From a virus (lineage: Duplodnaviria > Heunggongvirae > Uroviricota > Caudoviricetes), in the IMG/VR virus record IMGVR_UViG_2802429240_000009, positions 1 to 26,735 of that record: a DNA stretch of 26,735 bases; one strand, given 5' to 3'. Position numbers and translations under genes: made by a program. The notes under the pieces are model-generated. The model made no database searches and was not told the DNA's origin. It saw only the letters and a list, made by a program, of their open reading frames with translations. This document shows, piece after piece, positions 2,061 through 20,276 of the stretch (positions within the stretch are counted from its first letter, which is position 1; each line of letters starts with the position of its first letter).

Positions 2061-3125
2061 TTAAGTTGATTCCAGACTTCCTTTGGTAAAAGCTTGTATC
2101 AGTCTGTTTGCTGCTGCTTTCTGCGCTGCCACATTGGCAATAACAGATAGTTTTTCCTGGCTGGCTTTCGTGCAGATCCCCGCCCAGTTATCCATCAGAA
2201 AAAAATCCTCTCTTTCTGCAGAGCTGGTAGTTGCACATAGTTTTTCGATCATAGAAGTTATTTCTGCGATGGAATGATTAACCATCATCTGTTGAACCGC
2301 AAAACCGAAAGCGTTAATCATTACTCCATGGAACTGAATATAATCGCGCTTGTACGTAGCGTGGTGTACACCATGTCGGATTGAGTCAATCTGAGTTAGT
2401 GTAATCCATGCCTCCCAGACAGATTCTATATATCCCATTTCAAGTTGTTGATTGCCGTTCCTGGCGAACTTTGACGTTGCATCAGTGAGTGCCTTGAAAC
2501 TCACCCACATATTACTTTTTAATGGCACTACGTTGTGTTCAAAATCGGTTATATCGGCAAATACAGTATGTTGGGTCAGGAAGGATATCATTCCCTGAGC
2601 AATATCATCCCGGCCGTTATACGCCATATTGATGGTCGCTGATGGCTTAGAAACGTTGTTATTTATGTCCGAAAAGAACTGCTGCCGGGTTTTTAGCGGC
2701 AGATTCATTGTAAGCATCATGGGAACCATGAGCGTTGATGGGGAACTTCGGCAAAATATCTCAATGCCAGCTGCACGATGTTGACCATCAAAAAGTTTTA
2801 TTTCGGCGTCGAGGGGAATTCTGGCTATACCAACATTTGTGTTGCCAAACGGTACAAATTCTATATTCGAATCACAGTTACCTACGAGAGGGGGAATGAT
2901 AAAAGGCTCATTTCTTGAGTCTGCGTTAGTGAGATAATTTAAAAATTTTCGTACTCGATTTGGATTAATTTCTCGCTGAGAGCGTTCCAGTGTATGGCCG
3001 TAATTATCTGAAGCGAGGAAACGAGCCAGCGATCTTCCTGGTATGGTAAGGAAGAGTGTAACAGTACCACCCTGTACACCTTGCGATGCCGGAAATTCGA
3101 ATGAATGATTACCAACCTGACTCAT
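2061..3125 (-). CDS. DGQHR-motif protein (DndB-like, ParB/sulfiredoxin-fold superfamily), 354 aa; accessory gene
   Basis: The literal motif IKLFDGQHRAAGIEIF is present in the protein. AGGAGG lies 7 nt upstream of the ATG. The gene sits where lambda carries its dispensable orf63/orf61/ea22/ea8.5 genes. Confidence 0.7.
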   Translation of the reverse strand: MSQVGNHSFEFPASQGVQGGTVTLFLTIPGRSLARFLASDNYGHTLERSQREINPNRVRKFLNYLTNADSRNEPFIIPPLVGNCDSNIEFVPFGNTNVGIARIPLDAEIKLFDGQHRAAGIEIFCRSSPSTLMVPMMLTMNLPLKTRQQFFSDINNNVSKPSATINMAYNGRDDIAQGMISFLTQHTVFADITDFEHNVVPLKSNMWVSFKALTDATSKFARNGNQQLEMGYIESVWEAWITLTQIDSIRHGVHHATYKRDYIQFHGVMINAFGFAVQQMMVNHSIAEITSMIEKLCATTSSAEREDFFLMDNWAGICTKASQEKLSVIANVAAQKAAANRLIQAFTKGSLEST

Positions 3126-9266: not shown

Positions 9267-9565
9267 CGGGCAAAGAGGCAATTATTCATTACCTGGGGAC
9301 TCATAAGAACTTCTGTGCGCAGGACGTTGCCGCGGTAACAGGCGCAACCGTAACCAGCATAAATCAGGCTGCGGCTAAAATGGCGCGGGCAGGAATCCTG
9401 GTCGTTGATGGTAAGGTCTGGCGAACGGTGTATTACCGGTTCGCTACCAGAGAAGAACGGGAAGGAAAGGTGAGCACGAATCTGATTTTTAAGGAGTGTC
9501 GCCAGAGTGCCGCGATGAAACGGGTATTGAGGGTATATAAAAGAACATCAATGGGTACACAATGA
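9263..9565 (+). CDS. ren: Ren protein (100 aa)
   Basis: Close match to lambda Ren (MTGKEAIIHYLGTHKNFCAQDVAAVTGATVTSINQAAAKMARAG...). Start overlaps the P stop. Confidence 0.9.
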   Translation: MTGKEAIIHYLGTHKNFCAQDVAAVTGATVTSINQAAAKMARAGILVVDGKVWRTVYYRFATREEREGKVSTNLIFKECRQSAAMKRVLRVYKRTSMGTQ

Positions 9566-9632
9566 TGAAACAGGTGAGTTGAGTTCAAACTGTAGTACAA
9601 TTCTCTCCAGTTTGAACAGGAAAGAATATGCT

Positions 9633-9965
9633 ATGAACCCTTATATTTATCTTGGTGGTGCAATACTTGCAGAGGTCATTGGTACAACCTTAATGAAGTT
9701 TTCAGAAGGTTTTACACGGTTATGGCCATCTGTTGGTACAATTATTTGTTATTGTGCATCATTCTGGTTATTAGCTCAGACGCTGGCTTATATTCCTACA
9801 GGGATTGCTTATGCTATCTGGTCAGGAGTCGGTATTGTCCTGATTAGCTTACTGTCATGGGGACTTTTCGGCCAACGGCTGGACCTGCCAGCCATTATAG
9901 GCATGATGTTGATTTGTGCCGGTGTGTTGGTTATTAATTTATTGTCACGAAGCACACCACATTAA
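9633..9965 (+). CDS. emrE: EmrE small multidrug resistance (SMR) efflux transporter, 110 aa
   Basis: Matches E. coli EmrE essentially residue for residue from MNPYIYLGGAILAEVIGTTLMKFSEGF, including the conserved Glu14. The ORF-track start at 9579 is an upstream extension covering a hairpin. AT-rich relative to the backbone. Confidence 0.95.
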   Translation: MNPYIYLGGAILAEVIGTTLMKFSEGFTRLWPSVGTIICYCASFWLLAQTLAYIPTGIAYAIWSGVGIVLISLLSWGLFGQRLDLPAIIGMMLICAGVLVINLLSRSTPH

Positions 9966-9995
9966 AATAATTTGTTTCTAAACGACTAAAATATG

Positions 9996-10036
9996 GAGGC
10001 TCTTATATTTATATGAGCCTCGTTTTATGCTTTTTG
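9996..10036 (+). terminator. Intrinsic terminator after emrE
   Basis: GAGGCTC (9996-10002) and GAGCCTC (10015-10021) form a 7-bp stem with a 12-nt AT loop, followed by GTTTTATGCTTTTTG. Confidence 0.6.
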
Positions 10037-10219
10037 TTAATGTCTTTATTTTTTATGTATTCTTTTGTGCTTTCAAGATTATGGCGTAAGAAAATTGCAA
10101 TACGATTATTGTTGTATATTCAAGATAATGTGACCTTAATTGTCTTTTTAAATAAAAATTAAACAAAAATTATATCCCACCACTAAGGTTTATAAAAGCA
10201 TACGTTAGCAGGTGTCACC

Positions 10220-11746
10220 ATGAAAAAAGCCATAGCATATATGCGATTTTCATCACCAGGTCAGATGTCTGGTGACTCATTAAACCGACAGAGAAGACTT
10301 ATTGCTGAATGGTTAAAGGTAAATAGTGATTATTATCTTGATACCATAACATATGAAGATTTAGGATTAAGTGCATTCAAAGGAAAGCATGCACAATCAG
10401 GAGCTTTTTCGGAATTTTTAGATGCTATAGAGCATGGTTATATATTGCCAGGAACTACATTGTTAGTTGAAAGTCTGGACAGACTTTCAAGAGAAAAAGT
10501 CGGTGAAGCGATTGAACGTCTGAAATTGATTTTGAATCACGGTATTGATGTTATAACTCTTTGCGACAATACAGTCTATAATATTGACTCTTTGAATGAG
10601 CCATATTCATTAATAAAAGCCATACTTATAGCACAAAGGGCAAATGAAGAAAGCGAGATAAAGTCAAGTCGGGTTAAATTATCATGGAAGAAAAAACGGC
10701 AGGATGCACTGGAATCAGGTACGATTATGACGGCGTCTTGTCCGAGATGGCTCTCATTGGATGACAAAAGAACGGCTTTTGTTCCAGACCCCGACAGGGT
10801 GAAAACTATTGAGCTAATTTTTAAACTCAGGATGGAAAGGCGCTCATTGAATGCAATAGCCAAGTATTTAAATGATCATGCTGTAAAGAATTTCTCAGGA
10901 AAAGAAAGTGCATGGGGACCTTCTGTAATTGAAAAATTATTAGCGAATAAAGCTCTGATAGGTATATGCGTACCTTCATATCGTGCAAGAGGGAAAGGGA
11001 TAAGTGAAATCGCTGGCTATTATCCCAGAGTCATATCAGATGATTTGTTTTACGCTGTACAGGAAATTCGGTTGGCACCTTTTGGTATTAGCAATAGTAG
11101 CAAGAATCCTATGCTAATAAATCTACTTCGAACAGTTATGAAGTGTGAGGCTTGTGGTAATACCATGATTGTTCATGCGGTATCTGGAAGTTTGCATGGC
11201 TATTATGTTTGTCCGATGAGAAGATTACATCGATGTGACAGGCCATCAATAAAAAGAGATTTGGTTGATTATAATATCATTAATGAATTGCTTTTTAATT
11301 GTAGCAAAATTCAACCAGTTGAAAACAAGAAAGATGCTAATGAAACTTTAGAGTTAAAAATTATTGAGCTTCAGATGAAAATTAATAATTTAATTGCTGC
11401 ATTATCTGTTGCGCCTGAAGTTACCGCTATAGCAGAAAAAATCAGAGTATTAGATAAGGAATTACGAAGGGCTTCTGTATCATTAAAAACTTTGAAGAGT
11501 AAAGCGGTGAGCTCACTTGGTGATTTTCATGCTATTGACTTAACCAGTAAAAATGGGCGAGAGCTATGTCGTACACTTGCCTATAAAACATTCGAAAAAA
11601 TCATAATCAATACAGATAATAAAACCTGTGATATCTATTTTATGAATGGCATTGTTTTTAAACACTATCCTTTAATGAAAACAATATCCGCCCAGCAGGC
11701 GATAAGTACTCTCAAATATATGGTTGATGGTGAGGTTTATTTTTGA
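10220..11746 (+). CDS. ybcK: Large serine recombinase (resolvase/invertase-type catalytic domain, recombinase domain, zinc ribbon), 508 aa
   Basis: N-terminal AIAYMRFSSPGQ with the probable catalytic Ser, then LNRQRRLI. Cys pairs CEACGN...YYVCPMRRLHRC form the zinc ribbon, and the C-terminus is coiled-coil-like. Size and position after emrE match DLP12 ybcK as I recall it. AT-rich. Confidence 0.85.
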   Translation: MKKAIAYMRFSSPGQMSGDSLNRQRRLIAEWLKVNSDYYLDTITYEDLGLSAFKGKHAQSGAFSEFLDAIEHGYILPGTTLLVESLDRLSREKVGEAIERLKLILNHGIDVITLCDNTVYNIDSLNEPYSLIKAILIAQRANEESEIKSSRVKLSWKKKRQDALESGTIMTASCPRWLSLDDKRTAFVPDPDRVKTIELIFKLRMERRSLNAIAKYLNDHAVKNFSGKESAWGPSVIEKLLANKALIGICVPSYRARGKGISEIAGYYPRVISDDLFYAVQEIRLAPFGISNSSKNPMLINLLRTVMKCEACGNTMIVHAVSGSLHGYYVCPMRRLHRCDRPSIKRDLVDYNIINELLFNCSKIQPVENKKDANETLELKIIELQMKINNLIAALSVAPEVTAIAEKIRVLDKELRRASVSLKTLKSKAVSSLGDFHAIDLTSKNGRELCRTLAYKTFEKIIINTDNKTCDIYFMNGIVFKHYPLMKTISAQQAISTLKYMVDGEVYF

Positions 11747-11857
11747 GTAATAATCACTTTTTCAACCGTGCTATAGTAAGAAAGTTAGGTAAGTACAATA
11801 AAATTATCTATCCTGAACGAAGCGTCCTGAGCTATGATTTTACTATAGGGACTGCCA

Positions 11858-12181
11858 ATGGATGCTGGCGTTCTCGTTCTAGCAGTTCAACAATCCCCAA
11901 TCACAAAACAATTCACTGATAACGAACTTTGCACACTCGCCTGGTTATGGCGAGCAGGGAATGTGATGTTAATTGCCTACCAGAACGTTACTCATCTTCT
12001 TCAGGATGCGGAGCATGGTGAAGCTGGTCACTTCACTTCCATCGAGCAAGAATATCCCCAGATACTCAACAGAGCGCGAGCAATCCTCGTCCGAGAAACG
12101 GCACATGTAAAACTTCAGCCGTGGCAGGATGATAAGTGGAGTCGAGTATTGCCGCATTTACCTCAGAATCTGTTTCAATAA
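11858..12181 (+). CDS. Hypothetical protein (107 aa)
   Basis: ORF only, with a weak ribosome-binding site and no recognisable motif. Its base composition is more GC-rich than the flanking AT-rich genes. It is followed by a perfect 10-bp hairpin. Confidence 0.3.
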   Translation: MDAGVLVLAVQQSPITKQFTDNELCTLAWLWRAGNVMLIAYQNVTHLLQDAEHGEAGHFTSIEQEYPQILNRARAILVRETAHVKLQPWQDDKWSRVLPHLPQNLFQ

Positions 12182-12355: not shown

Positions 12356-13138
12356 ATGGACAATATTAATAAACACGGGCTCTCAAGAAGAATACCTGAG
12401 ACAATAAAACGTCAGATAAGGCAAAGGTGCGGCTTTGGCTGTGTAATTTGTGGATTTGGATTTTATGATTATGAGCATTTTAAACCTGACTTCGTTGATG
12501 CCAAAGTACATGATCCGAATGGAATGACACTTCTTTGCTCCCAATGCAATCAAAAAAGAGCTCGTGGTAGACTTTCAGCACAGACAGTGGAAATAGCTGA
12601 CAGAAATCCCAAGTGCTTACAGGCTGGTTTTGCAAATGAAATGTTTGATTTTCATAATGAGCCTATAACAGTAAAATTTGCAGGAGTGACGTTTCATAAC
12701 TGTCAAAATTTGATTGTAGTCAATGAACAACCCATTCTTTCTGTGAAACCTTCACCCATACCACATGGACCGATGCTTTTATCAGGAATTTTCTGTAATT
12801 CTATTGGTAAGGAGACTTTACTGATAGATGAAAATGAATGGAAAGCTAAATCAGACAATTGGGATGTGGAGTGTACCGGCCCGCGTATAACAATACGACG
12901 TGGGCCAGGAGAGTTTGCCCTCGTTCTAAAAATGGAACCTCCAACAGGATTGATTGTTGAGCGTCTTGATATGTTGTATGAAGGGGTCAGGATGAAAGGA
13001 GATAAAGATCTGCTGGAAGTTTCGATTAATGGAGGTCCCTTGCACAGATGGCAATCATGCTCAATGTCAAATTGCCATACAGGGCTTGCGATTCAGGGCG
13101 GTATTAGAGCTGCTAATGATCCTTTGTATTGCGCCTAA
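12356..13138 (+). CDS. HNH-nuclease-domain protein with an uncharacterised C-terminal domain of about 190 aa (260 aa)
   Basis: N-terminal Cys4 HNH signature: CGFGCVICG ... YDYEHFKPDF ... DPNGMTLLCSQCNQ. The remainder is unrecognised. AT-rich. Confidence 0.7.
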   Translation: MDNINKHGLSRRIPETIKRQIRQRCGFGCVICGFGFYDYEHFKPDFVDAKVHDPNGMTLLCSQCNQKRARGRLSAQTVEIADRNPKCLQAGFANEMFDFHNEPITVKFAGVTFHNCQNLIVVNEQPILSVKPSPIPHGPMLLSGIFCNSIGKETLLIDENEWKAKSDNWDVECTGPRITIRRGPGEFALVLKMEPPTGLIVERLDMLYEGVRMKGDKDLLEVSINGGPLHRWQSCSMSNCHTGLAIQGGIRAANDPLYCA

Positions 13139-14735: not shown

Positions 14736-14820
14736 AGTCAGAGATAACAATCAACTAATACTGTTTTGTTGATTTTTGCTTGTAATTGGCGTTCTGGTCT
14801 GAGTTTTGTGGAGTAAGTTG

Positions 14821-15198
14821 ATGCGTGATATTCAGATGGTTCTTGAGCGTTGGGGAGCGTGGGCGGCTAATAATCATGAAGATGTGACCTGGTCGTCCAT
14901 TGCCGCCGGTTTTAAGGGATTAATTCCTTCAAAAGTAAAATCTCGCCCGCAATGTTGTGACGATGACGCGATGATCATTTGCGGGTGCATGGCCCGTCTG
15001 AAAAAGAACAACAGCGATTTGCATGATTTATTGGTGGACTATTATGTCGGCGGCATGACTTTTATGGCGCTTGCACGTAAGCATGGGCGATCTGATTGTT
15101 GGGTTGGCAGGATGCTCCAGAAAGCTGAGGGCGTAGTGGAGGGTATGCTGATGGTGTTGGATCTCCGATTGGAGATGGATGCTGATTGTTCGAAATAA
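14821..15198 (+). CDS. Q: Late-gene antiterminator Q (phage-82/DLP12 QuuD type), 125 aa
   Basis: [35 protein letters not shown]...[12 protein letters not shown] matches the Q82 family. GGAG lies 7 nt upstream of the ATG at 14821. The ORF-track start at 14806 is a TTG extension. Confidence 0.9.
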
Positions 15199-15210
15199 TT
15201 AAAGGAAAAG

Positions 15211-15239
15211 TTGCTGTCTGATTCTCATTAGTCTAACAT
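15211..15239 (+). promoter_or_regulatory. Candidate late promoter pR' (with the Q-utilisation region just downstream)
   Basis: -35 TTGCTG (15211-15216), 17-nt spacer, -10 TAACAT (15234-15239). It is positioned immediately after Q and about 80 nt upstream of a strong terminator, as expected for pR'/tR'. Confidence 0.4.
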
Positions 15240-15296
15240 TTTAAATGTTGGAATCGCAACGTAGTTATTATCATATAACAGCTTGTTTCCTGATTT

Positions 15297-15325
15297 AGCC
15301 AGCCTCCCCAAAGGCTGGTTTTTTT
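15297..15325 (+). terminator. Strong intrinsic terminator (tR'-like) downstream of Q
   Basis: CCAGCCT (15299-15305), loop CCCCAA, AGGCTGG (15312-15318), followed by seven T residues (15319-15325). Confidence 0.65.
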
Positions 15326-15353
15326 CTAATAAGTATTATTTCGGGTAGGGATT

Positions 15354-15878
15354 TTATTGTTTAACCCATAATAATTCATTGACATTGAATCCCAACTTTT
15401 GAGCGGTTCGCACATAGTCTGCTTTTACTTTATCTGGAATAGTTGGGGTCCTTGCCAGAATCCATAGGTATTCTCTGTTCGGACCACTGACAAGAGCATA
15501 CTTATACTCATCATCCAGTTTGATTACATTATAGCCACCATAGAAGGGGCCAAAAAACGAAACCTTCAACGCTGCAGTTTTAGTATCTCCAGTAAAGTAT
15601 GCTTTACCTTCGCTCTCGCTCCATTTATTTTTCGTTGGATCGTATCCACGGTTAAGTACACGAATCCCTCCGTCGTTCCGTTTTCCATAGGTAGCGCTGA
15701 CCTGTTCCAGACCACGTTCGAACCGGTTCTCGAGGCGAGCTATTTCATACCATTTTCCGAGGTAGCGGTTGGCGTCAAAATTTGTAATCGGCTGCACACC
15801 TTTAGGTGGTGTCGGGGCCTTACATGCTATAAGAGTGAAAGAGAGTGCAATGCCAGTCAACACAGGCCATAACTTCAT
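15354..15878 (-). CDS. Bacterial lipocalin (Blc-like) outer-membrane lipoprotein, 174 aa
   Basis: Lipoprotein signal peptide with lipobox (MKLWPVLTGIALSFTLIAC). Lipocalin motifs (NFDANRYLGKWYEIARLENRFERGLE, KVSFFGPFYGGYNVI, YLWILARTP) resemble E. coli Blc as recalled. Opposite strand to the late operon and AT-rich. Confidence 0.8.
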   Translation of the reverse strand: MKLWPVLTGIALSFTLIACKAPTPPKGVQPITNFDANRYLGKWYEIARLENRFERGLEQVSATYGKRNDGGIRVLNRGYDPTKNKWSESEGKAYFTGDTKTAALKVSFFGPFYGGYNVIKLDDEYKYALVSGPNREYLWILARTPTIPDKVKADYVRTAQKLGFNVNELLWVKQ

Positions 15879-15910
15879 AATAAATCCTGTACTTTTGATA
15901 GTTGAGAGTA

Positions 15911-15960
15911 AGTATGAAAGATAGATGATTACGACCGATCACTTAAAGAACTTTCATACT
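15911..15960. promoter_or_regulatory. 10-bp inverted repeat (AGTATGAAAG-N30-CTTTCATACT) in the divergent promoter region
   Basis: Read directly from the sequence. It lies between the lipocalin gene start (15878) and the DUF523/DUF1722 gene start (16071). Confidence 0.3.
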
Positions 15961-16070
15961 ATATTAGGAATAGTCTATAACAGAAAAATTGTCAGTGATG
16001 ACGCCAGAAAGGCAATTTATTCCGTGCACTACACAGTTTATGTGTTAATGAATTAGTCAAGGGGGAGAAT

Positions 16071-17030
16071 ATGATAAAAAAACCTGTGATTGGAATCAGC
16101 GGTTGTTTGGCCGGCTCTGCTGTTCGTTTTGATGGTGGTCACAAAAGAGCTGACTTTTTAATGGACAAATTAGTGGAATGGGTAACATTCAGACCAGTAT
16201 GTCCGGAAATGGCTATAGGGCTGCCAGTTCCGCGTCCTGCTCTACGTCTTGTGCGCTCGACGCAAGGAAATATACGGATGTGTTTCAGCCACGACCAGAA
16301 TGAGGATGTGACAGAGAGAATGACAGAGTTTAGTCGTTCTTATATGGACAAATTAAAGGATGTATCGGGGTTTGTGGTTTGTGCTAAATCTCCCAGCTGT
16401 GGCATGGAGCGCGTGCGTGTCTATGATGAAAATGGTAATCGAGGTCGTAAAGATGGAGTGGGACTATTTACGAGCACTTTGATGGAAAAGTTTTCCTGGC
16501 TACCGGTTGAAGAGGATGGGCGATTACATGATCCAGTGCTTCGTGAGAATTTTGTTGAAAGAGTTTTTGCTTTGCATGAGCTCAATCACCTTTACAAGGA
16601 GAAATTATCAAGAAGAGAGTTATTAGCTTTTCATAGTCGTTATAAGCTTCAGTTGTTGGCGCATAGTCAGGCAGGCTATAAAGATATGGGACCATTTGTG
16701 GCTGCAATACACGAGTGGGCGGACCTTGAATCATACTTTGAGGTGTATCGTGATAAGCTGATGGCGATTCTCAGAAAACCTGCATCACGTAAAAATCACA
16801 CGAATGTGCTGATGCATATACAGGGGTATTTTAGTAACTACTTAAGTACACGCCAGCGTAAAGAGTTGAGCGAGGTTATACTTAACTATCGTTCTGGCAC
16901 ATTACCTCTTCTTGCGCCGTTGACTCTGCTGAAGCATTATCTGGGTGAGTATCCTAATGATTACTTGCTTACACAGAATTACTTCGCTCCCTATCCGGAC
17001 GAACTGGCTCTAAGACTGATGGTAAATTAA
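16071..17030 (+). CDS. DUF523 (TudS-like, Cys-ligated Fe-S) / DUF1722 (YbgA-like) fusion protein, 319 aa
   Basis: N-terminal half has conserved Cys residues in a DUF523-like arrangement (GISGCLAG, VCPE, CAKSPSCG). The C-terminal half resembles YbgA/DUF1722 (ELLAFHSRYKLQLLAHS). GGGGGAG Shine-Dalgarno. This is a family assignment from memory. Confidence 0.65.
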   Translation: MIKKPVIGISGCLAGSAVRFDGGHKRADFLMDKLVEWVTFRPVCPEMAIGLPVPRPALRLVRSTQGNIRMCFSHDQNEDVTERMTEFSRSYMDKLKDVSGFVVCAKSPSCGMERVRVYDENGNRGRKDGVGLFTSTLMEKFSWLPVEEDGRLHDPVLRENFVERVFALHELNHLYKEKLSRRELLAFHSRYKLQLLAHSQAGYKDMGPFVAAIHEWADLESYFEVYRDKLMAILRKPASRKNHTNVLMHIQGYFSNYLSTRQRKELSEVILNYRSGTLPLLAPLTLLKHYLGEYPNDYLLTQNYFAPYPDELALRLMVN

Positions 17031-17372
17031 TTGTATGCGATATCATCCAAAAGGATGAGTTCCTGCATGCAAGATATTTACAATCGTAAAAACTACACTA
17101 TGATACCCAGAGTGTCAGTTTGTATAAAAACTCTGTTTACGCTGAAGAAACCATTGAGATGCAACTTAAAGTTGGTAAACATGCCAGTCAAAATATATAA
17201 TATTATGATTCCACGCAGCTATATATAATATAACAGATTGGTTTAATAATTTGTCTTTGTGAGTTAAATACATAATTTTATACTTGTGATGCAATGAGAT
17301 TTTCCTTATTGTTGAACTGGCGAATATTGATTTTCCACCTATACTTACCTGGTGTAACCCCAATGATATCAG

Positions 17373-18113
17373 GTGGATAATATGCCATACATATGTTCTA
17401 TCATTTTGGTGTTGAACTCGTTTGATGTCCGAATTGGTAAAGAAGATATTTTGTTTAAAAAAGGAAGTGCTGTTCTCATTGATTACAATTTAAAAGATTT
17501 TTTTTCATCAAATATAGATCATGTAATGATCGTAGATGTTGAAGAGAAAACAGTTAATGATTTCTTTAAAAGCAACACACTCTCACCTTTTTCTGTAAGA
17601 AGGTTTTATCCGGCATACTTGATGGTGGAATGTGAAGATTTTTCATTGTTAAAGAACTTGATTGCATGCTTGAATTGTGATGGCAGAACTGTGGATTTTG
17701 TTAGAAATCAAATATCACTTGCATGTCTTGCTATCTTATCTTCAGAGAAAATAGTGCAAAGTTTTTTATTTGGATGTCTTAATAGTTTAGGAAGTAAAGT
17801 TAAGGCTATTATTCACACGGATATATCTGCAGCATGGAGACTTTGTGATATATCTTCAAGACTGTATCTGAGTGAAAGTCTGTTAAAAAGAAAATTAAAG
17901 CACGAAGGCTTATCATTTAGTAAGTTAATTCTTGAAGAGCGAATGGTGATGGCGGAAAGGTTATTAAGCTACAATTTATATTCTGTTGGAAAAGTTGCTG
18001 AGATATGCGGTTATGAAAACACGTCATATTTTGTAAGTGTTTTCAGAAGATATTTTGGTGTTCCTCCCCATCAATATTCATCAAGACTTTTTTTAGAAAA
18101 AGACATGATGTAA
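17373..18113 (+). CDS. AraC/XylS-family transcriptional regulator (246 aa)
   Basis: C-terminal double HTH of the AraC family (VGKVAEICGYENTSYFVSVFRRYFGVPPHQY). Very AT-rich, with an AT-rich 340-bp upstream region. Confidence 0.8.
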   Translation: MDNMPYICSIILVLNSFDVRIGKEDILFKKGSAVLIDYNLKDFFSSNIDHVMIVDVEEKTVNDFFKSNTLSPFSVRRFYPAYLMVECEDFSLLKNLIACLNCDGRTVDFVRNQISLACLAILSSEKIVQSFLFGCLNSLGSKVKAIIHTDISAAWRLCDISSRLYLSESLLKRKLKHEGLSFSKLILEERMVMAERLLSYNLYSVGKVAEICGYENTSYFVSVFRRYFGVPPHQYSSRLFLEKDMM

Positions 18114-18174
18114 CGTGATGCGTTTTAATGATTTTGTAATTTTCGTATTTAATAATTGTATGATGCTTTCAGCT

Positions 18175-18206
18175 ACGCCAGAATAATCGCTGGCGTTTTT
18201 CTTTTT
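18175..18206 (+). terminator. Intrinsic terminator after the AraC-family gene
   Basis: ACGCCAG (18175-18181), 8-nt loop, CTGGCGT (18190-18196), followed by TTTTTCTTTTT. Confidence 0.6.
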
Positions 18207-18301
18207 GAATAGATGTTCAAGCCTTACGCTAATGTAACTTCTATACCTTTCCTCTTCGTTCCGAACCGTGTACACCATCCGTTATTTGCGGAGGTGAGGC
18301 T

Positions 18302-18517
18302 ATGAAATCCATGGATAAGTTAACAACGGGCATTGCCTACGGCACCTCCGCAGGCAGTGCTGGCTACTGGTTTTTACAGCTGCTCGATAAAGTCACGCCC
18401 TCACAGTGGGCAGCAATAGGTGTGCTGGGTAGCTTGGTATTTGGCTTGCTGACGTACCTGACAAACCTTTATTTCAAGATTAAAGAAGATAAGCGCAAGG
18501 CTGCGAGAGGTGAATAA
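18302..18517 (+). CDS. S: Phage-21-type pinholin S (71 aa) with dual-start motif
   Basis: [26 protein letters not shown]... matches S21 as recalled. Met1/Met4 give the antiholin/holin dual start. Confidence 0.9.
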
Positions 18518-19014
18518 TGCCTCCATCATTACGAAAAGCCGTTGCTGCTGCTATTGGTGGCGGAGCAATTGCTATAGCATCAGTGTTAATCACTGGCTCA
18601 AGTGGTAACGATGGTCTGGAGGGTGTCAGCTACATACCATACAAAGATATTGTTGGTGTATGGACTGTATGTCACGGGCATACAGGAAAAGACATCATGC
18701 TCGGTAAAACGTATACCAAAGCAGAATGCAAAGCCCTCCTGAATAAAGACCTTGCCACGGTCGCCAGACAAATTAACCCGTACATAAAAGTTGATATACC
18801 GGAAACAACGCGCGGCGCTCTTTACTCGTTCGTTTACAACGTGGGCGCTGGCAATTTCAGAATATCGACGCTTCTTCGCAAAATAAACCAGGGCGATATC
18901 AAAGGCGCATGTGATCAGCTACGTCGCTGGACATATGCTGGCGGTAAGCAATGGAAAGGTCTCATGACTCGTCGTGAGATTGAGCGTGAAATCTGTTTGT
19001 GGGGTCAGCAATGA
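18517..19014 (+). CDS. R: SAR endolysin (R21-type lysozyme), 165 aa
   Basis: N-terminal Gly/Ala-rich signal-anchor-release segment ([20 protein letters not shown]) followed by a lysozyme domain. The start overlaps the S stop. Confidence 0.9.
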
Positions 19015-19472
19015 ACAGAGTAACCGCGATTATCTCCGCTCTGGTTATCTGCATCATCGTCTGCCTGTCATGGGCTGTTAATCATTACCGTGATAACGCC
19101 ATTACCTACAAAGCCCAGCGCGACAAAAATGCCAGAGAACTGAAGCTGGCGAACGCGGCAATTACTGACATGCAGATGCGCCAGCGTGATGTTGCTGCAC
19201 TGGATGAAAAATACACGAAGGAGTTAGCTAATGCGAAAGCTGAAAATGATGCTCTGCGTGATGATGTTGCCGCTGGTCGTCGTCGGTTGCACATCAAAGC
19301 AGTCTGTCAGTCAGTGCGTGAAGCCACCACCGCCTCCGGCGTGGATAATGCAGCCTCCCCCCGACTGGCAGACACCGCTGAACGGGATTATTTCACCCTC
19401 AGAGAGAGGCTGATCACTATGCAAAAACAACTGGAAGGAACCCAGAAGTATATTAATGAGCAGTGCAGATAG
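19011..19472 (+). CDS. Rz: Spanin inner-membrane subunit Rz (153 aa)
   Basis: The ATG overlaps the R stop (ATGA). N-terminal TM segment and coiled-coil-like remainder. Rz1 is embedded in the +1 frame. Confidence 0.85.
19231..19413 (+). CDS. Rz1: Spanin outer-membrane lipoprotein Rz1 (60 aa), embedded in Rz
   Basis: Lipobox (LVVVGC) followed by a proline-rich stretch ([15 protein letters not shown]), lying entirely inside Rz in another frame. Confidence 0.8.
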
Positions 19473-19503: not shown

Positions 19504-19797
19504 TTATTGTGAGCAATACACACGCGCTTCCAGCGGAGTATAAATGCCTAAAGTAATAAAACCGAGAAATCCATTTACGAATGTTTGCTGGGTTTCTGTT
19601 TTAACAACATTTTCTGCGCCGCCACAAATTTTGGCTGCATCAACAGTTTTCTCCTGTCCAATTCCCGAAACGAAGAAATGATGGGTGATGGTTTCCTTTG
19701 GTGTTACTGCTGTCGGTTTGTTTCCAACAGTAAACGTCTGTTGAGCACATCCTGTAATAAGCATTGCCAGAGCGGCAGAAAACAACATTTTTTTCAT
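19504..19797 (-). CDS. bor: Bor lipoprotein (serum-resistance lysogenic-conversion protein), 97 aa
   Basis: MKKMLFSAALAMLITGCAQQTFTV... matches lambda Bor as recalled. Opposite strand to the late genes. The ORF-track start at 19845 is an upstream extension. Confidence 0.9.
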   Translation of the reverse strand: MKKMLFSAALAMLITGCAQQTFTVGNKPTAVTPKETITHHFFVSGIGQEKTVDAAKICGGAENVVKTETQQTFVNGFLGFITLGIYTPLEARVYCSQ

Positions 19798-20276
19798 CTT
19801 ATTATCCTGCATTGTTAAAAACGGCAGAATCCTATGTGACAACAATTAAACGATAGTTAAATGGATTGATGAAAATTAAAACTATATAGGTGGATGCTCA
19901 GCCTATTGGAGGAGGGGGGGGGCACTCAGAATCCTGTGGAATGAAATAAACCGCTCTATCTGTCCATTACCCTTTTAGCTGCGCTGTATCGTCGCCGTAT
20001 TCCCGCATTAACCATGACCGTAGCCCGACGGGGAATTCCTTCTGCGTGAGTGTGCGGGAATAATCAAAAACGATGCACACCGGGTTTTTACCGCGTTTAT
20101 GGTTCGCGGGGGTGTCCCTCATGCTCGCCAGTCCTGTGCGGGGGTGGAAGAAACAGGACGTGTATTCAGGTCTGTGTGACTGTGGTCGCAAGACTTTTGT
20201 CGTTCAGCTATTAAATCCCATTACGAAGTAGACCAGAACGGCCAACGGGTCCTTTCCGGCGATCCGACAGGTTACG

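Follow-up and report, generated by a model that had tools for sequence, protein, structure and literature searches.

Introduction

Stx-converting phages of the 933W type and the prophage DLP12 of Escherichia coli K-12 carry different cargo, stx and the porin gene nmpC, respectively, in the same slot, which extends from the 3' end of the antiterminator gene Q to the ribosome-binding site of the holin gene S. Three further described systems are relevant to the locus presented here. RudS proteins, described in 2024, are fusions of TudS with DUF1722 and act as [4Fe-4S] desulfidases converting 4-thiouridine (s4U) of tRNA to uridine (PMC11417400); members of the family are RudS_vir, RudS_KT and RudS_ST, the latter being ORF319/STM1389 of Salmonella. 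Of 19 infant-gut lambda phages, over half were listed with the lipocalin gene blc as a moron (PMC6969025, Mathieu et al. 2020). PatE (z0321, OI-8/CP-933H), PsrA and PsrB are prophage-encoded AraC-like regulators of enterohaemorrhagic E. coli (EHEC) O157:H7, of which PatE and PsrB are the ones known to activate the gadE/hdeAB acid-resistance genes and to repress genes of the locus of enterocyte effacement, so that both act on host genes (review PMC10877973). Here we analysed a stretch of 26,735 nucleotides of caudoviral DNA (IMG/VR record IMGVR_UViG_2802429240_000009, positions 1 to 26,735; hereafter the window), in which genes for a Blc-type lipocalin, a RudS protein and an AraC/XylS-family regulator follow one another between Q and the lysis genes.

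We consider it probable, at roughly 0.72, that this interval is an exchangeable late-operon cargo slot of a Q21-family lambdoid prophage, and that it is filled with two co-travelling morons working as proposed below. The first would consist of the divergent lipocalin gene (minus strand) and rudS (plus strand), a chromosomal layout from which a MerR-type gene has been lost, and the second of a PatE/YdeO-group regulator gene that has a sigma-70 promoter and a terminator to itself. No part falls outside the described families, and two of the genes had been noted before in these very phages. A sequence-only reading of the window had not recognised the set as a described unit, which stands for the combination but not for its members, since RudS_vir has been assayed from the same block and blc is already a listed moron. 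In the literature searched we found no account of how these genes are combined, of their two-part origin, of how tightly they are linked to a single Q allele or of how prevalent the block is.

The Q-to-S slot and its cargo

The cargo interval (15199-18301) reaches from the end of Q (15198) to the start of S (18302), and it comprises, together with its flanking genes, the following features.

14821-15198, plus strand: antiterminator Q gene, 125 amino acids (aa) by the RefSeq start; the open reading frame (ORF) opens with TTG at 14806
15199-15296, plus strand: Q-proximal leader, where the late promoter PR' and the Q-loading elements are expected
15297-15327, plus strand: predicted intrinsic terminator, tR'-like, 9-bp stem (15297-15320) and U7, about 100 nt past Q
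15354-15878, minus strand: predicted Blc-type outer-membrane lipocalin lipoprotein gene, 174 aa, antisense to late transcription
15879-16070, no strand: divergent lipocalin/rudS intergenic region, 96% conserved among variants
16071-17030, plus strand: rudS, 319 aa, TudS (DUF523) and DUF1722 fusion
17031-17381, plus strand: spacer with the predicted regulator promoter, about 350 nt, 32% G+C, indel-rich
17382-18113, plus strand: AraC/XylS-family regulator gene, 243 aa by the RefSeq start; in-frame GTG at 17373
18175-18206, plus strand: predicted intrinsic terminator behind the regulator gene, stem 18175-18196 and U-run
18302-19472, plus strand: lysis cassette S (P21-type holin), R (lysozyme) and Rz; Pfam Phage_holin_2_1 and Phage_lysozyme

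Homology to K-12 DLP12 ends at 15180, a few codons short of the end of Q, and starts again at 18291, which is the ribosome-binding site of S; between the same breakpoints K-12 DLP12 has nmpC, disrupted by IS5. Judged by this exchange and by related prophages without the block, the Q-to-S slot is swappable and its cargo dispensable. The Q protein belongs to PF06530 (E 2.5e-51; antiterminator Q family protein in the annotation of strain CE10), named the Q21/Q933W family in a structural preprint (10.1101/651190). Together with the shared breakpoints, this family assignment therefore points to the same slot, and the same kind of Q, as in stx-carrying 933W-type phages, with the block directly behind Q, in agreement with the sequence-only reading, which had placed the cluster where Stx phages carry their toxin genes. 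One of the cargo genes faces against late transcription, just as nmpC and bor do in related phages. Unlike the stx and nmpC slots, this one holds no toxin, porin or tRNA genes and is filled instead with genes for stress and regulation. Scans of the block for Rfam families and tRNAs gave no matches.

All three genes were found in the order and on the strands first described for them. Their description as AT-rich was confirmed for the AraC-type gene and the spacer preceding it (32% G+C) but not for the lipocalin gene and rudS, which with 44% G+C are close to the 47% of the window.

Across 5,426 complete E. coli genomes, and requiring coverage of at least 80%, the whole block was present in 992, the lipocalin gene in 1,042, rudS in 1,064, the AraC-type gene in 996, and this Q allele with its leader in 1,078 genomes. 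The 2,274 further genomes with related quuD alleles, which match only inside Q, have other cargo and neither the leader nor the block. In addition, 12 phage records contain the block at the same coverage threshold, and three backbones bear the cassette, namely DLP12-type prophages (at argU), Qin-type prophages and the Jouyvirus 'Lambda' phages. Presence and absence of the block across related prophages, which the sequence-only reading had proposed to follow, are seen in these counts, with K-12 DLP12 and its nmpC as an example of absence, and the block is no chance cluster of ORFs. Partial copies are explained by insertion sequence (IS) insertions and deletions. In the isolated phages 1H12, Lambda_2E9, other Lambda_ev phages and IdasGreatGrand, the block likewise lies between Q and the holin gene. 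The phages of Mathieu et al. 2020 (Lambda_ev series, 1H12, 2E9) bear a variant 89% identical in DNA, which in 1H12 is arranged as gp64 (Q), gp65 ('Lipocalin Blc'), gp66 (RudS_vir), gp67 (AraC-like, 'hypothetical protein') and gp68 (holin).

Elements of the block were compared among three sequence variants. The leader is 96% conserved across them, is always linked to this Q allele, and can hardly be aligned with that of K-12 DLP12. Reading the sequence unaided, we find a candidate promoter in it, with -35 TTGCTG (15211-15216), a 17-nt spacer and -10 TAACAT (15234-15239). The terminator behind the leader was found by a terminator scan, its predicted fold has an energy of -14.9 kcal/mol (z -3.9), stronger than that behind the AraC-type gene (-11.3 kcal/mol), and its stem is invariant in all three variants. 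Of the features of a Q21 cassette, which has PR', a sigma-dependent pause element, a Q-binding element and a terminator behind the Q gene, the Q family member and the strong terminator 100-130 nt downstream are seen here, with a Q that is only remotely related to Q21 (solved structures 6P18/6P1B, E 1.9e-8).

A separate observation concerns the motif TATAACAG, which occurs three times on the plus strand in non-coding parts of the block (15274, 15976 and 17229); for the window as a whole, four copies stand against an expectation of 0.61. Among the variants, conservation is limited to the copy at 15274, directly before the Q-proximal terminator, and a similar ATATAACAG comes after quuD in K-12. 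The motif may be a -10-like or pause element.

An AraC-type regulator of the PatE/YdeO group

The C terminus of the regulator carries the double helix-turn-helix of the AraC family (PF12833, HTH_18, and PF00165, HTH_AraC; residues 161-237), with GadX (3MKL, E 2.6e-20) as the nearest solved structure of the DNA-binding domain. Over 235 residues, i.e. its full length with the N-terminal domain included, the protein is 54% identical to ECs_0287, the sole AraC-type gene of the E. coli Sakai prophage Sp1, which corresponds to OI-8/CP-933H. From this position and the review cited above (PMC10877973), we infer that ECs_0287 is PatE. The NCBIfam equivalog models for YdeO (127 bits, cut-off 348), HilD (87, cut-off 354) and GadX (86, cut-off 500) all failed, the best of them, YdeO, aligning end to end (residues 1-234), so that by these scores the protein appears to be a relative and not an orthologue of YdeO, GadX and HilD. 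In an AlphaFold2 model (mean predicted confidence, pLDDT, 76.6) the best full-length structural matches are Rns, CsvR and ToxT (E 1e-11 to 1e-8, TM-score about 0.43). The predicted fold would therefore place the regulator in the fatty-acid-responsive Rns/ToxT architectural class, a class that says nothing on ligand binding here.

The spacer in front of the gene has a mean identity of 78% among variants, with indels, and contains a predicted promoter with -35 CTGGCG (17317-17322), a 17-nt spacer and -10 TATACT (17340-17345). A (T)TGGCA-17/18-TATACT sigma-70 promoter also precedes the homologous genes of Sakai Sp1 (PatE), the locus L013 and Lambda_2E9, although the homologous regulators (loci L005, L007 and L013) are only 54-64% identical. 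This conservation across the family is good comparative evidence that the regulator gene is expressed on its own. The gene had also been said to be followed by its own terminator, and one is predicted at 18175-18206 by the terminator scan (-11.3 kcal/mol, z -2.3), kept in all three variants despite diverged flanks. A hairpin sequestering the Shine-Dalgarno sequence (17334-17340 with 17371-17377) as a control of regulator translation was considered and rejected; its fold has z values of -1.2 and -0.8, and its upstream arm falls within the conserved promoter's own spacer and would thus be left out of the transcript.

The comparison with PatE is close in size (243 aa here, 247 aa in PatE), full-length homology, prophage location, AT-richness and promoter architecture. 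It differs in that PatE stands at the end of its prophage, and the regulator of the window in the Q-to-S slot beside lipocalin and RudS genes, and in that the window regulator is found mostly in non-EHEC strains, mainly in commensal, extraintestinal pathogenic (ExPEC) and avian pathogenic (APEC) backgrounds, unlike PatE, PsrA and PsrB of EHEC O157:H7. The expectation that prophage AraC-like proteins rewire host regulons finds support insofar as the protein is a full-length homologue of the inferred PatE. The block adds a very common, uncharacterised member to the PatE/Psr prophage-regulator group. In EHEC, this group governs both acid resistance and type III secretion.

Side by side with this we noted a 3.2-kb contig binned as 'Candidatus Nanosynbacter' (L009, JARKOR010000151.1) with a 98%-identical AraC-type gene and an identical upstream region; almost certainly, DNA of an E. 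coli prophage was wrongly assigned here to a metagenome-assembled genome.

A foreign Blc-type lipocalin

The lipocalin gene product matches Pfam Lipocalin_2 (PF08212, E 7e-44), passes the NCBIfam model of the Blc subfamily (NF007786, 316 bits, cut-off 267), and matches Blc structures in the PDB, E. coli Blc crystals included, at E 1e-68. Its translation begins with the lipoprotein signal MKLWPVLTGIALSFTLIA-C19-KA, with the lipobox L-I-A-C and Lys, not Asp, at position +2, and the product is a predicted lipoprotein with no signal for retention in the inner membrane. With E. coli Blc (b4149) it shares fold family, lipobox and length; it differs from it in being only 58.8% identical to the K-12 protein and nearer to the Blc of other genera, with 72-82% identity to those of Cedecea, Serratia, Pantoea and Klebsiella. 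Judging from these identities, it is a foreign second paralogue and no copy of E. coli blc.

In a proteome study of the clinical strain CCUG 70745, levels of WP_000780581.1, to which the window protein is 100% identical, were measured and rose 2-3 fold within 15 min of meropenem exposure (PMC13459554). The authors of that study took it for ordinary Blc. Its presence in this proteome amounts to protein-level evidence for expression of the lipocalin in a lysogen.

A predicted RudS enzyme that E. coli was said to lack

The first description as a DUF523/DUF1722 protein was right in its domains (PF04463, residues 7-149, and PF08349, residues 192-309, both with E of about 1e-40), but this protein type now has a described function, RudS. 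The protein is 93.4% identical to RudS_vir (gp66) of Escherichia phage 1H12, shares the fusion, the length of 319 aa and the cluster cysteines with RudS_vir and RudS_ST (Cys12, Cys44 and Cys110, at the positions listed for both), and has Glu46 within a CPE motif and Ser107 and Ser109 within an SPSCG motif. A partial alignment to the TudS structure 6Z92 spans the first cysteine and the CPE motif. Chromosomal 319-aa RudS proteins of many Enterobacterales are 70-76% identical to it. RudS_vir, whose gene sits in the orthologous Q-blc-rudS-araC-S block and was handled as an isolated sequence in the RudS study, reduces tRNA s4U when overexpressed in E. coli; it showed the lowest tRNA desulfidase activity among the tested RudS proteins, though well expressed, and the shortest lag on 4-thiouracil (PMC11417400). 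Going by this similarity, the window protein is a RudS-family tRNA s4U desulfidase, with the activity itself shown on the 1H12 protein.

E. coli has been said to lack RudS and to own only the stand-alone DUF1722 protein YbgA (PMC11417400). However, about 20% of the complete genomes (the 1,064 given above) carry at least 80% of rudS, on prophages, and the statement is true of K-12 but not generally true for complete E. coli genomes. About one fifth of these genomes have an intact prophage rudS, and E. coli strains may thus vary in their tRNA s4U content and in how they respond to near-UV light.

BL21(DE3) offers an observation of its own (NC_012892.2, 1584683-1592701). There, a Qin-type version of the block has Q and the lipocalin gene intact, and in BL21(DE3) as in E. 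coli B an IS3 cuts rudS after 147 nt, with the remainder of the block gone. BL21 thus lacks RudS only because its prophage copy is truncated, and this truncation matters because BL21(DE3) hosted the published RudS assays.

Related sequences elsewhere were also noted. In Salmonella enterica serovar Derby and related contigs (L014-L016), a gene for a 73%-identical RudS adjoins ttcA in a prophage fragment with an integrase remnant and DUF1367; RudS is therefore phage cargo in Salmonella too, separate from the copy orf319 in Salmonella pathogenicity island 2 (SPI-2). Two longer proteins, one of 403 aa with a RudS sequence 99% identical to that of the window joined to GGDEF (P0030) and one of 500 aa with a 76%-identical RudS sequence joined to DUF3833 (P0034), are probably frameshift or read-through fusions.

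Proposed working in lysogeny and induction

In the lysogen, the lipocalin and the regulator would be made independently, each from its own promoter, and the regulator would act on AT-rich host promoters, e.g. those of the glutamate decarboxylase (GAD) system and hdeAB, by analogy with PatE and PsrB. RudS would let E. coli erase the s4U mark at tRNA position 8 (s4U8), which is sensitive to ultraviolet A (UVA) light, an activity shown for the 93%-identical 1H12 protein. Upon induction, Q would load onto RNA polymerase at the promoter just past Q, and the Q-loaded polymerase would pass the terminator at 15297-15327, run antisense over the lipocalin gene and then sense over rudS and the regulator gene, and continue past the terminator at 18175-18206 into S-R-Rz, the first essential late genes 3' of the cargo. 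This read-through, which the sequence-only reading had already anticipated for the plus-strand genes, is likely because of the architecture and because viable, isolated phages have the same layout. RudS would then be abundant exactly after induction by UV damage, which would make a role in shielding translation from s4U8 photo-cross-linking an attractive idea. Promoters of their own in the lysogen had been expected for the plus-strand cargo genes; the family-conserved promoter of the regulator gene agrees with this.

Several points weigh against this scheme. The scan for a lysogen promoter of rudS gave none that is convincing (best 9 of 12 matches), and the MerR-type operator of the chromosomal relatives is absent before the phage gene; RudS may therefore come mainly from lytic growth. 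RudS_vir was the weakest tRNA desulfidase of the enzymes tested (PMC11417400). With PatE the regulator shares just 54% of its residues, and its score stays below the YdeO cut-off, so that its targets may differ. The proteomic identification of the lipocalin comes from one strain and from its authors' own accession assignment. Finally, the leader shares almost nothing with that of K-12 DLP12, and the kinship of Q with Q21 is remote.

An alternative that we regard as possible, yet doubtful, is that RudS is chiefly a lytic auxiliary. As a bulk late product after UV/SOS induction it would strip s4U8 so that UVA cross-links, uncharged tRNA and the growth delay mediated by guanosine tetraphosphate (ppGpp) spare virion synthesis. 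Consistent with this, rudS lies on the strand of the late transcript and has a strong Shine-Dalgarno sequence with no clear promoter or operator of its own, in cells overexpressing RudS, s4U falls and the growth delay after UVA is shorter (PMC11417400), and viable phages retain the gene under purifying selection; for the lipocalin and the regulator, this alternative is compatible with the two-moron explanation. On the other hand, RudS_vir is a poor tRNA desulfidase, as stated, and rudS is also kept in defective prophages unable to run a lytic cycle, such as that of CE10, which is disrupted by IS elements.

A broader reading, which we think rather unlikely as a whole, regards the s4U eraser as a phage-transmitted, strain-variable trait of E. 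coli, with late rudS serving the phage and the lysogen gaining a portable stress-tolerance package. In its lytic part, Q-dependent RudS would strip s4U8 after UV exposure and the SOS response, blunting UVA cross-linking and ppGpp-mediated growth delay, and late proteins would still be made. In its lysogenic part, rudS freed of its MerR-type repressor, the foreign Blc and the PatE-like regulator would together be the package.

Two units by origin, one cassette today

The explanation by two co-travelling morons also draws on the relatives of the block outside E. coli. Serratia rubidaea, Phytobacter massiliensis and a metagenomic contig each have a lipocalin gene (174-177 aa) divergent from a MlrA-like MerR-type gene, which is followed by RudS. 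Between the proteins of this chromosomal module and their phage counterparts identity is 72-82%, and only the coding regions are similar. The phage pair has the same divergent orientation of lipocalin and RudS genes, but the MerR/MlrA-like gene and its operator are missing, and an AraC-type gene stands downstream instead. More generally, chromosomal RudS genes are under MerR-type regulators (LitR, MlrB), whereas the window rudS has none adjacent. In the mlrB-orf319 arrangement of Salmonella SPI-2, orf319 (RudS) is repressed by the adjacent MlrB and by MlrA, with an operator over the promoter. In other enterobacteria, RudS ends an operon of short-chain dehydrogenase/reductase, amine oxidase, DUF1365, cyclopropane-fatty-acid-synthase-like, DUF2878 and DUF3833 genes.

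Homologues of the AraC-type gene are found apart from the other two. One, 64% identical (P0013), stands alone directly after a lambda-type Q, PatE is at the end of Sakai Sp1, and a 242-aa homologue (P0024) adjoins a phage methyltransferase; when species-representative genomes were scanned with the AraC alignment, just three loci matched, none of them on an enterobacterial chromosome. Because the lipocalin/RudS pair mirrors the chromosomal module and AraC homologues occur solitary behind other Q genes, the block appears to be a composite. Thus, by sequence comparison, the trio is two units by origin, the lipocalin/RudS pair and the AraC-type gene, and in present-day E. coli it is one linked cassette. 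The possibility that the genes had been acquired independently, named at the outset as one that would speak against a common unit, therefore holds in part for their origin but not for their present distribution, as the trio is co-distributed in E. coli genomes. The block is a clean example of slot filling, in which a chromosomal stress module minus its regulator was joined to a separate regulator moron and the joined Q-to-S cassette then moved as a single piece among three prophage backbones; the understanding of such systems is unchanged in principle.

Two seeming parallels were rejected. ORF242, the neighbour of ORF319 in Salmonella SPI-2, was considered as an AraC homologue, which would have made RudS and AraC an old pair, but it is the MerR-family protein MlrB. 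In the RudS operon of Citrobacter, a 175-aa protein precedes DUF3833; considered as a lipocalin, it shows no similarity to one.

Against this background, it is unlikely that the three genes form one regulatory unit in which the AraC-type protein replaces the lost MerR-type regulator and controls the lipocalin and rudS promoters locally, perhaps via repeats in 15879-16070. For such a unit speak the missing dedicated regulator of the chromosomal module, the repression of Salmonella orf319 by the adjacent MlrB, the tight linkage of the trio in E. coli and the 96% conservation of the intergenic region. The repeats themselves argue otherwise. The inverted repeat 15911-15920/15951-15960, which had been put forward as a site for the regulator, exists in the window as a perfect 10+10 repeat with a 30-nt gap; in the two other variants, however, it matches at 9/10 and 8/10 positions with non-compensatory changes, so it is a weak operator candidate and, not being conserved as a palindrome, was rejected. 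Moreover, AraC homologues exist without lipocalin or RudS, the characterised relatives PatE and PsrB target host genes (PMC10877973), and the AraC-type gene is more diverged at synonymous sites among block variants (dS 0.32-0.60) than the lipocalin gene and rudS (0.05-0.30), which suggests a separate history.

Repression of the phage rudS by host MlrA through a retained operator was also considered. With a consensus for MlrA-type operators against which the K-12 csgD site scores 20/22, dyads were found before the RudS genes of Serratia (18/22) and of the metagenomic contig (L022, 16/22). In the phage region 15879-16070 no match of at least 14/22 was found at the canonical spacing, and the sole trace is a degenerate dyad, AAATTGTC (15986-15993) and GGCAATTT (16011-16018), which is one base too wide.

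Selection on the block

In favour of two working morons, dN/dS is 0.07-0.26 in all three genes, indicating purifying selection among variants that reach a dS of 0.6. A hitch-hiking or decaying block, currently functionless and held by its linkage to Q and the lysis genes, could account for the IS insertions and truncations, such as IS3 in rudS of BL21(DE3), IS1 in place of the AraC-type gene in strain SRY157, and genomes without the lipocalin gene. In view of the selection values, the intact copies in about 1,000 genomes and three backbones, the conserved catalytic residues and the detected lipocalin protein, this explanation is very improbable. Least credible is a role in anti-phage defence or superinfection exclusion, which the typical hotspot position for prophage accessory genes and an outer-membrane lipoprotein that could in principle mask a receptor might suggest, since none of the three proteins matches PADLOC-DB and all belong to clear non-defence families.

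The prophage around the block

Taken as a whole, the window is a DLP12-type lambdoid prophage that is intact for the most part, and a near-identical prophage, 98.6% over 12.5 kb, is located at the argU tRNA gene of strain CE10. Its genes besides the block are as follows.

Genes from the integrase to the recombinase: integrase, RecT/exonuclease pair, CI-like repressor, O and P, emrE, ybcK-like recombinase
Further genes: ybcN-ninE-ybcO-rusA-ylcG, Q, lysis genes, bor/iss, terminase

Between the integrase and exo/RecT genes lies a cargo-like DndB-like gene (2061-3125, minus strand; PF14072, DNA-sulfur-modification-associated, E 4e-46). The AT-richest stretch of the window, 9500-12000 with 31-39% G+C, holds an EmrE-type small multidrug resistance efflux gene (9579-9965) and a gene for a 508-aa serine recombinase (10220-11746), a pair that matches the emrE-ybcK arrangement of K-12 DLP12. 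An ORF of 260 aa with a Cys-rich N terminus and no Pfam match (12356-13138, plus strand) stands where K-12 and CE10 have ybcL-ybcM. Directly after Rz, a Bor/Iss-type lipoprotein gene (19504-19845, minus strand; PF06291), named iss in CE10, is again antisense, so that the late operon has two morons for outer-membrane lipoproteins on its minus strand.

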